From Escherichia coli O127:H6 str. E2348/69 (GTDB taxonomy: Bacteria > Pseudomonadota > Gammaproteobacteria > Enterobacterales > Enterobacteriaceae), in the NCBI RefSeq assembly GCF_000026545.1, contig NC_011601.1: a stretch of DNA of 64,000 nt. One strand, written 5' to 3'. Within the stretch, counting starts at the first letter, position 1. Every line of letters starts with the position of its first letter. Shown here piece after piece: positions 25,701-31,700 of the stretch. A program made the position numbers.

Positions 25701-28700
25701 TTAAGCCCTCACCTACCGGGAGAGGGCTTAAGATATTAATACCCCGCCGTTAAATCATCCACCGAGCGTGGGTCGGATGCACCGTACAGCTCACCGTCCG
25801 GCCCAACCATAATGCTTTGTGTACTGCCCATCGCCTCTTTCAGCGCCACTTTCTGACCTTTTGCTTCCAGCAGCTTGATCGTATCCGGGCTAAACCCTTT
25901 TTCGACACGCAGCTCGTCCGGCAACCACTGATGGTGGAAACGCGGCGCATTGGTCGCTTCGGCGACGTTCATTCCATAATCGATGCTATTCACTACCATT
26001 TGCAGCACAGTGGTGATAATCCGGCTACCGCCTGGGCTTCCGGTGACCAGCCAGGTTTTACCATCCTTGACCACAATGGTTGGTGACATCGACGACAGCG
26101 GGCGTTTATTCGGCCCGACGGCGTTGGCATCGCCGCCCACCAGCCCGTAAACGTTCGGTACGCCTGGTTTGGCGGAGAAATCATCCATCTGGTTATTGAG
26201 CAAAATACCGCTCTCGCCCGCGACAATGCCCGTACCGAAGGTGGTGTTCAGCGTATAGGTCACCGCCACGGCGTTACCGTCTTTATCCACTACTGAGTAA
26301 TGGGTAGTTTGATTACTCTCATAAGGCGCAAGCTTGCCAGGACGAATTTCGCTGGATGGCTTCGCTTTATTGATATCGATTTGATCGGCAATAGATTTGG
26401 CATAGGCTTTATTGGTCAGCGCCTGCCACGGTACTTTGACAAAATCCGGGTCGCCAAGATATTCCGAGCGGTCGGCATAGGCGTATTTCTCAGCTTCTGC
26501 CATGATTTGCATCGCGTCGGCGCTGCCAAAGCCGTACTTCTGCATATCGAAGTTTTCCAGAATATTGAGGATTTGTACGATATGAATACCGCCGGAAGAT
26601 GGCGGTGGCATGGAGTAAACCTGATACCCGCGATAATCGCCGCTTATCGGTGTGCGTTCGACCGCTTTATATGCCGCTAAATCTTCTTTGCTGATCAAGC
26701 CACCGTTTTTCTGCATCTCCTGGGCAATCTGTTCCGCTATCGTGCCTTTGTAGAATTCATCCGGGCCGTTTTCGGCAATCATCTTCAGGCTCTTTGCCAG
26801 GTTCGCCTGCACCAGCTTGTCGCCCTTTTTCAGCGGTTCGCCCTCTTTCCAGAAGATAGCTTTGCTGTTTTCGTGGTTCGGCAGCACTTCACTGCCGTAG
26901 GTTTTGAGATCGTCAGCCAGCGCGTCGTTAACGATAAAACCATCGCGTGCCAGTTTAAACGCCGGTTGCACCACTTTATTCAACGGCATGGTGCCGTATT
27001 TATCCAGCGCCAACGAGAAACCCGCTACCGTACCGGGTGTGCCGGAAGCCAGATGCGAAGTGAGTGATTTTTTGCTGTCCGGGTTGCCCTGATCATCGAG
27101 GAACATATCGCGGGTCGCTTTGGCGGGTGCCATTTCGCGGAAATCGATAGCCGTGGTATTGCCATTTTTCGAGCGGATCAGCATAAAACCACCGCCGCCC
27201 AGATTCCCTGCCTGCGGATGCGTTACTGCCAGCGCGTAGCCCACCGCCACGGCAGCATCAACGGCATTCCCGCCCTCCTTGAGGATATCCACCCCCACCT
27301 GAGTGGCAGTAGCATCTACAGACGCCACCATTCCCTGCTTAGCGCGTACCGGATGGAAGACATCTTCCTCCACACCATAAGAAACAGGTGGCGCGGCTAC
27401 CGTACTAAAACAACTTCCTGTGAGCAGAGCAGCAATGGCCACCCGGCGTAAAAACGTCGGTTTTATCATCGTTATTCTCCAGAGATTAAGGGGCAACCCC
27501 AGCTAAGCCTGGTATATAACTCTGAATTAATCATCGTTTTGCCGGGAAGCGAGTAAACTTAAAGAATATCTTCAGAGGAGGATACGCGATGAAACGACTT
27601 CTGCTTTTGACGGCACTCCTGCCGTTTGTCGGCTTTGCACAGCCCATTAATACTCTGAACAACCCTAACCAGCCGGGATATCAGATCCCCAGCCAGCAGC
27701 GGATGCAAACTCAAATGCAGACGCAGCAAATCCAGCAAAAAGGGATGCTGAACCAGCAACTGAAAACGCAAACGCAGCTGCAACAGCAGCATTTAGAAAA
27801 CCAGATAAACAATAATTCTCAGCGGGTGTTGCAGTCACAGCCGGGGGAGCGAAATCCCGCCCGGCAGCAAATGCTGCCCAACACCAACGGCGGGATGTTA
27901 AACAGCAACCGTAATCCGGATAGTTCGTTGAATCAGCAGCATATGCTGCCGGAGAGGAGAAACGGCGACATGCTGAATCAGCCCAGCACGCCGCAGCCTG
28001 ACATTCCGTTGAAAACTATTGGGCCGTAAAGTTCGGACCAATCACGTCAATCGCATCGGTACAGATGCAATCCACGCCCCAGCGCAGCAACTCTGCCGCG
28101 CGCTGGGGTTTATTGACGGTATAAACCAGAATCCGTAATCCGGCGTCTTTCAACTGCATCACTCGCGCTTTATCGAGCAACTTATGATTGAGATGAATAG
28201 AGACGCAGCCCAGCCGCGCGGTCAATTCTCGCCAGTCGTCGCGCCATTCATCAAGCAATAAACCACGCGGCAGTTCCGGTGCTGCCTGTTGCGCGGCTTC
28301 TAAAGCATCAATCTCAAACGATGACAGCAGCGGCGGCGTCATACCGGTCCACAGTTCGCGTGCCGCCAACGCCACCGTTTTGCCCGTTAATGGTCCGGTG
28401 CCAGTGGTGGGTTTGATTTCGATATTCGCCATCATCCCGTGTTTGCGACAACGTTCCGCCACCTGCGAAAGCAATGGCAGCGGCTCACCTTTAAACGCTT
28501 TGCTGTACCAACTGCCTGCATCCACGCGCAGTAAATCCTGCCAGTTCAGTTCACCCGCGACGCCCCAGCCGTTGCTGGTGCGTTCAAGATTGTCGTCATG
28601 GAGCAGGAAGATCTCGCCATCTTTCGATAACTTTGCGTCAAATTCGATCATCTTATGACCGTATTTTGCCCCGATGTCGATTGCTGCCAGGGTGTTTTCC

Positions 28701-31700
28701 GGGGCCAGCTTACCGCCACCACGATGGGCGACGATGCGGGGATAAGGCCAGTTACTCATACTCGTTGTCCTGTTTCACCATCAAAAAGATGCAGCTGATT
28801 TTCCGGCAGATGCAGCCACAGCGTGCTGCCTGCCGTCGGGCGCTCCTGATGTGCCAGTCGCACCACCAGCTTCTGTTCGCCCCAACGTCCGTGCGCCAGG
28901 TTATCTGCGCCGAGGATCTCCAGCGTGTCCATCACCAGCGGCACACCACCTTCTGCCTGCGAGCTTAGCGCTATATGTTCCGGGCGAATGCCGAGGGTCA
29001 TTTTACGCCCGGCATACTGACGGTAGCCACCGTTTAGCGGCAGCGTAATACCACCATCCAGTTCGAAATGCGTACCTTCGTTATTCACGCGGCCAGCCAG
29101 TAGGTTCATCGCCGGGCTGCCGATAAAACTCGCCACAAACAGGCTGGCGGGCTTTTCGTACACTTCAACTGGCGTGCCAATCTGTTCGGCGATGCCGCCG
29201 TTCATCACCATTACTCGCTGGGCGAGCGTCATCGCCTCAACCTGATCGTGGGTAACGTAGAGTGAAGTCGTTTTCAGGCGACGGTGCAGCTGTTGCAGTT
29301 CAAGACGCATCTGCACACGCAACTTGGCATCGAGGTTAGAGAGCGGCTCATCAAACAGGAACACTGCCGGCTCACGCACAATCGCACGCCCCATCGCCAC
29401 ACGCTGGCGCTGACCGCCGGAAAGCTCACGCGGGCGGCGCTTAAGCAGGCCGTCCAGCTCCAGAATGCGCGCCGCTTCTTTAACACGTTCGGCAATTTGT
29501 TGCTTGCCCATGCCGCGAATTTTCAGCCCCCACGCCATGTTCTCCTCTACGCTCATATGCGGATAGAGCGCGTAGTTCTGGAACACCATCGCAATCCCGC
29601 GATCTTTCGGCTCCATTTCGGTGACACGCTTGCGGTCGATCCAGATATCGCCCGTCGTTACCCGCTCCAGTCCGGCCACCATTCGCAATAACGTCGATTT
29701 CCCGCAGCCAGACGGCCCGACCATCACGATAAATTCGCCATCCGCCACATCAAGGGTCAGCGGTTTAATGACCTGGGTTTTGCCATCCCAGCTTTTGGTT
29801 ACTGCCTGTAATTTCAGTCCTGCCATCTTATTTCTCACTATCGACCAGGCCGCGCACGAAGGCACGCTGCATCACTAAAACAATCACTACTGGTGGGATC
29901 AGGGTTAACAACATCGCCGCCATCACCGAGTTCCATTCCGTTGTGCCTTCGCCTGTGGCGATCATCCCTTTAATCCCTGCCACGGTGGTGCCGAGATCAA
30001 CGTCGGTAATAATCAACAACGGCCACAAATACTGGTTCCAGCCGTAAATAAAGGTGATCACAAACAGCGCCGCCAGATTAGTTTTGGACAGCGGAAAAAC
30101 GATGTCGCAAAATAAACGCATTGGCGACGCGCCGTCGATCCGCGCGGCTTCCACCAGTTCATCCGGTAGGGTCATAAAGAACTGGCGAAACAGAAACGTG
30201 GCGGTCGCCGAGGCCATCAGCGGCAGCGTTAAACCTGCGTAGCTGTCGAGCATTTTCAGGTTGGCGATGACTTCCACCGTCGGGAAGATACGCACTTCAA
30301 CCGGCAGCATCAGGGTGATAAAAATCATCCAGAAGAAGAGGTTACGTAGCGGAAAACGAAACCAGACAATGGCAAATGCCGAGAGCATCGAGACGGTAAT
30401 TTTGCCGAGCGTAATGCTGAACGCCATCACAAAGCTGTTAAGCAACATCCGCCAGAACGGCGCGCTATTCGTGCCTACCCCGTTTACCCAGATGTTGTGG
30501 ATGTTTTCCCGCAGATGTGTGCCGGGGATTAGCGTCATCGGTGCGGCATAGACTTCTTGTTTATCCAGCGTCGCCGCGACAAACGCCACGTACAGCGGGA
30601 AAAGGATCACCGCGATCCCGAGGATCAGCATGGTATGGCTGAATATTGTCAGCCACGGACGGTTCTCAATCATTGGTAACGCACCTTGCTTTCAACATAG
30701 CGGAACTGCACCACCGTCAGCACGATGACGAGGAACATCAACACCACCGACTGCGCGGCAGACGAAGCCAAATCCAGTCCGGTAAAGCCTTCACGGTAGA
30801 TCTTATAAATCAGCGTCGTGGTGGCCTGTACTGGCCCGCCGGAGGTGGCGGCGTCGATCACCGGGAAGGTGTCGAAGAAGGCATACACCAGGTTCACCAC
30901 CAGCAGGAAGAAACTCACCGGAGCGATAAGCGGCAGCGCAATCTTAAAGAAGCGGCGAATCGGCCCTGCCCCATCAATGGCTGCGGCTTCGATCAACGAA
31001 CGGGGGATGGATTGCAGCGCGGCATAGAAGAACAGAAAGTTGTAGCTGATTTGCTTCCACACTGAGGCAAACACCACCAGGAACATCGCCTGACCGCTGT
31101 TTTGCGCGTGGTTCCAGTCGTAGCCGAACTCAGCGAGAAAATGGGTGATCAGCCCGCGACCGGGGTTAAACAGAAAGATCCACAATACGGCGGCAACGGC
31201 GGGAGCCACGGCATACGGCAGCAGCATCAAAGTTTGATAGAAACGACTGCCGCGCACGATGTACTCCACCAGCGCTGCGAAGAACAGCGATACCAGCAAA
31301 CCGCTGACGGTGACAAAGGTGCTGAATTTTATCGTCGTCCAGAAGGCGTCGAGATAGTAGCTGTCATGAAACAGCGTGACGAAATTATCCAGGCCGACAA
31401 ACTGGCTGGAGAAACCAAACGGATCGACGCTTTGTAGCGAGTACCACAACGCTTCGCCCGCAGGCCAGATAAAAAAGATAACGGTGATGATGAGCTGCGG
31501 CGCGACCAGCAAATAAGGCAGCCAGCGCGAGCGGAACACCGGACGGGATGATGACATTACAGTTAATTCCTGAACTGTGCCGGATGCGCTTCGCTTATCC
31601 GGCCTACACGCGATGCCAGGTCAGATAAGCGAAACGCATCCGACATTACACTGATTAAGACTTCGTCGATTTCTCAAAGCGGCGCAGTAACTGGTTCCCA

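Follow-up and report, generated by a model that had tools for sequence, protein, structure and literature searches.

Gene overlaps are commonplace in Escherichia coli, where 663 of 4047 gene pairs overlap, 586 of them co-oriented and 75 convergent (PMC4161906). Two described systems lend such overlaps a possible regulatory meaning. In termination-reinitiation pairs of the ATGA or TAATG type, two genes lie on the same strand, the start codon and Shine-Dalgarno sequence of the second are embedded in the 3′ end of the first, and the modal overlap is 4 or 1 base pairs (bp) (PMC10666635). Excludons in the sense of ExcludonFinder are tail-to-tail genes whose messenger RNAs (mRNAs) are necessarily complementary at their 3′ ends (2025; PMC12288877), whereas in classical excludons the antisense overlap is long and the two genes have been shown to affect each other's expression reciprocally. 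Here, we consider a stretch of 64,000 nucleotides (nt) from the chromosome of enteropathogenic E. coli (EPEC) O127:H6 strain E2348/69, referred to below as the window, and three overlapping gene pairs within it: the convergent pair yhhA/ugpQ and the co-directional pairs ftsE/ftsX and rsmD/yhhL. All three overlaps are real and exact, and they are very probably no more than background, the usual short overlaps to be found where a bacterial genome is compact. By comparison of 80 enterobacterial loci, the spacer-less tail-to-tail layout of yhhA and ugpQ is old, and overlap length alone is lineage-specific.

Three short overlaps in a compact genome

Coordinates were read from the list of open reading frames, the sequence itself and the identical RefSeq record NZ_LT827011.1, in which window position 1 corresponds to position 3692443. 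A sequence-only reading of the window had reported overlaps of 14, 8 and 11 bp for the three pairs, figures that are borne out to the base by the sequence and by the RefSeq annotations of both E2348/69 and K-12. On the plus strand, yhhA (27589-28029) encodes a Gln/Asn-rich protein of 146 amino acids with a DUF2756 domain, whose signal peptide is coded by 27589-27639. Facing it on the minus strand is ugpQ (28016-28759), the final gene of the ugpBAECQ cluster, which encodes a glycerophosphodiester phosphodiesterase of 247 amino acids. Their convergent 3′ ends share the 14 bp at 28016-28029 (CTATTGGGCCGTAA). The yhhA stop codon TAA occupies 28027-28029 and the ugpQ stop codon TAG is the complement of 28016-28018, within the Thr143 and Ile144 codons of yhhA; across the overlap the YhhA codons T-I-G-P-stop face the UgpQ codons F-T-A-Q-stop. 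In the first co-directional pair, on the minus strand, ftsE (42723-43391) and ftsX (41672-42730) share 8 bp at 42723-42730 (ATGAATAA), and in the second, on the plus strand, rsmD (45040-45636) and yhhL (45626-45895) share 11 bp at 45626-45636.

The locus is a stable part of the species. A segment of 1.5 kb round yhhA/ugpQ matches the E2348/69 chromosome at 100% and is found in 5424 of 5426 complete E. coli genomes; the 76 nt spanning the junction itself are present in 5418 of these, in 4044 cases at ≥99% identity. That the overlaps are annotation artefacts created by miscalled gene ends is hardly credible. In its favour, the downstream start codons are predicted, and other ATG codons are available, one at 42757, upstream of the annotated ftsX start, and one at 45653, in frame and 27 nt beyond the annotated yhhL start. 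However, both annotated starts are preceded at 6-8 nt by a strong Shine-Dalgarno sequence, and the annotated YhhL start is supported because the alignment to the Pfam DUF1145 model begins at residue 1. The convergent overlap depends on two unambiguous stop codons alone, and both of its open reading frames belong to real families. All six proteins of the three pairs match their expected Pfam families (UgpQ matches GDPD over residues 12-238 of 247, E 3.1e-55), and all three overlaps recur in the curated annotation of K-12 MG1655.

According to RefSeq, the window has 60 adjacent gene pairs, of which 16 overlap: 14 of the 41 that are co-directional and 2 of the 10 that are convergent. Twelve of the 14 co-directional overlaps measure 1 or 4 bp, the remainder being the 8-bp and 11-bp cases above. 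No overlap in the window is longer than the 19 bp shared by the second convergent pair, rtcR (plus strand) and glpR (minus strand), at 1477-1495, and two further convergent pairs nearly abut, yhhL/yhhM being 2 bp apart and dcrB/yhhS 3 bp apart. Tight packing, as asserted by the sequence-only reading, is a correct description; the weight which that reading gave to the three overlaps was too high, since such overlaps are typical of E. coli, and the longer rtcR/glpR overlap was left out of it. Overlaps of this kind would arise when a stop or start codon moves at a protein end that is free of constraint, and would be tolerated since they involve no more than a few codons at the gene ends.

In both co-directional pairs the downstream gene begins inside the end of its upstream neighbour, ftsX at -8 nt and yhhL at -11 nt. 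The Shine-Dalgarno sequence likewise lies inside that neighbour, as GGAGG at 42743-42739 within ftsE, 8 nt before the ftsX ATG, and as AAGGAG at 45614-45619 within rsmD, 6 nt before the yhhL ATG. FtsE is the ATPase subunit and FtsX the membrane subunit of one complex; between rsmD, which encodes a 16S rRNA methyltransferase, and yhhL, which encodes a small DUF1145 membrane protein, we know of no physical or functional link. With the downstream start and its Shine-Dalgarno sequence placed in this way, reinitiation is possible: ribosomes ending the upstream gene could reinitiate on the downstream one, from ftsE to ftsX and from rsmD to yhhL, and this would aid equal production of FtsE and FtsX. 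The arrangement resembles that of termination-reinitiation pairs, but the overlaps of 8 and 11 bp depart from the modal 4 or 1 bp. A spacing of -8 to +10 nt has been taken to predict termination-reinitiation coupling, and such close pairs are 4.5-fold enriched in E. coli for subunits of heteromeric complexes, at 30.4% versus 6.8% (Huber et al., 2023; PMC10666635). Translational coupling, which the sequence-only reading had raised as a possibility, is plausible for ftsE/ftsX, and reasonable to propose because their products form one complex; the yhhL Shine-Dalgarno sequence inside rsmD fits coupling of that pair too.

A junction probably shaped by stop-codon drift

A scan with UgpQ, taking one genome per species, yielded 80 Enterobacteriaceae loci in which the yhhA/ugpQ junction could be compared. 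In all 80, a DUF2756 gene follows ugpQ directly and in convergent orientation. The two genes overlap in 62 loci, by 4 bp in 37, 7 bp in one, 9 bp in one, 11 bp in two, 14 bp in five, 17 bp in six and 20 bp in ten. In the commonest state, that of 4 bp, the two stop codons have TTAA, TTAG or CTAA in common. In the other 18 loci the genes are separated by 5-96 bp, and the two widest gaps, those of Buttiauxella agrestis and Cedecea, include palindromic insertions.

Four Escherichia species and Buttiauxella izardii share the 14-bp form, and their junction sequences are identical. Citrobacter has the same YhhA C-terminus as Escherichia (...PLKTIGP) and the same UgpQ length, yet overlaps by only 4 bp. 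Relative to the Citrobacter junction that of Escherichia is ~10 nt shorter, the end of UgpQ reads NFTAQ in place of DFQPC, and the ugpQ stop codon now lies inside yhhA. The 14-bp form of Escherichia thus looks like the 4-bp state minus ~10 nt. The C-terminus ...IPLKTIGP is common to Escherichia, Citrobacter, Buttiauxella, Atlantibacter and Cedecea, and the overlapping codons fall outside the GDPD domain, which ends 9 residues before the UgpQ C-terminus, and beyond the part of YhhA matched by the Pfam DUF2756 model (residues 1-105 of 146).

We found no evidence that contradicts an ordinary origin of the three overlaps. The direction of the 10-nt change, be it a deletion in Escherichia or an insertion elsewhere, is inferred from few junction sequences, and the Escherichia-type junction of B. 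izardii is awkward to fit to a simple tree. Selection, rather than neutrality, could be the reason why a near-zero spacer has persisted in 80 species. As to the co-directional pairs, the -11 nt spacing of rsmD/yhhL lies just beyond the range of -8 to +10 nt given for coupling, and this pair forms no known complex.

Two observations on individual loci may be recorded here. Within Buttiauxella, the 14-bp Escherichia-type junction of B. izardii (L078) stands beside the 96-bp gap with palindromic insertion of B. agrestis (L076), a difference that could be due to parallel change or to recombination. A contig labelled 'Chryseobacterium sp. 18061' (L064) bears an enterobacterial ugpQ-yhhA locus whose UgpQ is 86% identical to that of E. 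coli, and is probably mislabelled or contaminated.

Overlapping transcripts and candidate terminators

Since the coding sequences of yhhA and ugpQ overlap, their full mRNAs share a complementary stretch of at least 14 nt; with no intergenic terminator at the junction, each mRNA has to end within the partner gene. Such overlap has already been reported for K-12: yhhA-ugpQ is among the 165 convergent pairs with overlapping RNA sequencing coverage in ≥50% of 58 MG1655 transcriptomes, and two other pairs of the window, yhhL-yhhM and dcrB-yhhS, are likewise in this MG1655 excludome list (PMC12288877). The transcript-overlap part of the 'antisense interplay' suggested by the sequence-only reading is accordingly unavoidable as well as previously described. 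Mapped transcript ends without overlap, the outcome on which that suggestion was to be abandoned, are impossible if both coding sequences are expressed.

Two hairpins inside the partner genes are candidates for ending these transcripts. On the plus strand, a GC-rich hairpin inside the ugpQ coding sequence (28076-28109; GCCCCAGCGC...GCGCUGGGGU) lies 47 nt past the yhhA stop codon, is followed by UUUAUU up to 28114, and is a candidate yhhA terminator. It is more stable than 200 of 200 shuffled sequences (z -3.9), and the two arms of its stem correspond to the UgpQ codons for Pro-Gln-Arg and Arg-Trp-Gly. At this site a strong hairpin (minimum free energy ≤ -12) is found in 75 of the 80 species, a U-rich tail in 35 and the Pro codon CCC required by the stem in 71. 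On the minus strand, a hairpin inside the yhhA coding sequence (27965-27994), 22 nt past the ugpQ stop codon, has a 13-bp stem and a poor U tail (CGUUUCUCCU; free energy -22.1, z -3.1), and is a weak candidate for a ugp terminator.

Several further observations concern transcription at or near these convergent pairs. Downstream of yhhM, and antisense within yhhL, a strong minus-strand hairpin (45817-45848; CGCCGAAAAGG...CCTTTTCGGCG) is followed closely by a mapped 3′ end of K-12 (3605158), so that transcription of yhhM stops within yhhL, the convergent gene only 2 bp away; a Rho-sensitive read-through site lies deeper in yhhL (K-12 3605061). The K-12 Term-seq data also list a Rho-independent 3′ end on the plus strand in the signal-peptide part of yhhA, 51 nt into the gene (window ~27640, K-12 3586994; Adams et al., 2021), which could represent premature termination, a pause or a processing product. 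Genomic SELEX (systematic evolution of ligands by exponential enrichment) with the RpoF (sigma-28) holoenzyme gave a peak inside ugpQ, at window ~28487 (PMC5493296); a sigma-28 promoter motif sought under this peak, at 28000-28800, had no convincing match.

The proposal that each coding sequence has been shaped to hold the terminator of the other, with 28076-28114 ending the yhhA mRNA and 27965-27994 ending the ugp mRNA, draws on the folding of both hairpins beyond shuffled sequence, the UUUAUU directly after the ugpQ hairpin, the retention of the CCC codon and the analogy with the hairpin inside yhhL. It nevertheless appears unlikely. In an 81-sequence alignment the pairing at the ugpQ hairpin is 85%, against 84% in column shuffles, with compensatory changes almost nil; because the pairing is no better than in the shuffles, its conservation is explained by the protein, whose conserved PQR and RWG codons form the stem arms. 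The U tract is confined to the 35 species mentioned, the K-12 Term-seq tables list a 3′ end at neither hairpin (Adams et al., 2021), and the TERMITe supplements hold no entry for yhhA or ugpQ. A promoter and terminator scan of 27000-29200 returned 3 terminator-like sites against 2.5 expected, hence no excess over shuffles, and no promoter-like sites, and was uninformative. The CAG and CTG codons of yhhA make palindromes automatically, and the minus-strand hairpin is probably their by-product. Both hairpins thus remain candidates only.

Another proposal holds that yhhA and ugpBAECQ form a functional convergent excludon, in which repression of one unit by transcription of the other, through polymerase collision or RNase III cleavage of the duplex, would tie the response of ugp to phosphate starvation to that of yhhA to general or envelope stress. 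The overlapping transcripts of K-12, a spacer-less junction conserved across the 80 species and the failure to find a convincing intergenic or canonical terminator at yhhA/ugpQ are consistent with it. So are the separate regulators of the two units, with an RpoS-type site in the ggt/yhhA spacer (PMC5493296) and induction of yhhA by a LolCDE inhibitor (PMC5105897). However, ExcludonFinder scores coverage overlap only, which is guaranteed wherever coding sequences overlap; 18 of the 80 species have a spacer; and no reciprocal effect has been reported. When E. coli O157:H7 enters stationary phase, yhhA, ugpQ, ugpC and ugpE are all induced and fall in one expression cluster (PMC2241611), which argues against strict exclusivity. 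In contrast to classical excludons, then, yhhA/ugpQ offers overlap only, between genes that are apparently co-induced, and we regard a functional excludon as quite improbable. It is likewise improbable that the near-zero spacer has been kept by selection in the 80 species, with the two units terminating or attenuating each other through the embedded hairpins or polymerase collision, and with yhhA serving as a conserved antisense brake on ugp read-through into ggt. An ordinary junction between two unconstrained protein ends remains our preferred account of yhhA/ugpQ.

YhhA and the wider window

The description of YhhA as a Gln/Asn-rich secreted protein is accurate as to composition and, as to secretion, corresponds to a predicted Sec-type signal peptide. 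Of the 146 residues of YhhA, 29 are Gln and 18 Asn, a share of 32% (36% after the predicted signal peptide); the median among 40 proteins encoded in the window is 8.1%. By inspection, its N-terminus comprises a basic MKR n-region, a hydrophobic h-region and a GFA|QP cleavage site with small residues at -3 and -1, and the residues FAQP are invariant in the homologues. YhhA matches Pfam PF10956 (DUF2756) with E 1.6e-60, at 202.4 bits where the gathering cut-off is 21. An AlphaFold2 model built from a 41-sequence alignment contains one long helix, at residues 34-83 (predicted local distance difference test, pLDDT, 72-85); the remainder, including the whole C-terminal half, is of low confidence, and the mean pLDDT is 59.9. 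The literature on yhhA treats it only as a stress-induced gene, on the strength of the RpoS-type site and LolCDE-inhibitor response cited above and of its induction by multiple stresses. YhhA may thus be described as a predicted exported, probably largely disordered, Gln/Asn-rich and stress-induced protein.

Within E. coli the length of YhhA ranges from 96 to 165 amino acids through in-frame deletions and duplications that affect the central Gln-rich segment only (~residues 40-115), with both termini invariant, including the codons that overlap ugpQ. Tandem Repeats Finder detected no DNA tandem repeat in yhhA despite the repetitive protein, and short direct repeats or slippage are therefore the likely source of this variation. 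The DUF2756 homologues of the 80 species share with YhhA the signal peptide, the N-terminus and Gln/Asn richness (19-42%), whereas the C-terminal tail, the part that takes part in the overlap, varies among genera, with lengths of 92-225 amino acids, and the Pfam model stops at residue 105. A preprint (bioRxiv, 10.1101/364117) presents YhhA as an experimentally validated EPEC effector and possible ATM-kinase substrate mimic. This type III effector claim is doubtful, because the protein has a Sec-type signal and is present in all 80 sampled enterobacterial species rather than in pathogens alone.

Elsewhere in the window, a scan against Rfam matched only the small RNA RyhB (24972-25036, minus strand, 83 bits) and naRNA4, a nucleoid-associated RNA derived from repetitive extragenic palindromic (REP) sequence (49378-49456, minus strand, 65 bits), and no RNA family at the overlaps. 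An IS4-like ISEc13 transposase gene lies between zntA and tusA (49676-51049). The toxin-antitoxin pair hicAB, with a 4-bp overlap of its own, lies between nikR and yhhJ (61482-62113), and a frameshifted PstS-family pseudogene with two hypothetical genes lies between glpD and glgP (5202-8187).

The overlaps discussed here are already part of the standard E. coli annotation, and the transcript overlap of yhhA and ugpQ is already catalogued; the sole addition made here is a descriptive comparative picture of the yhhA/ugpQ junction. This junction would be of interest for regulation only if its spacer-less state proved to control ugp, yhhA or ggt, which lies downstream. As a comparison across Enterobacteriaceae, it provides a tidy example of how the drift of stop codons shapes the junctions between genes.

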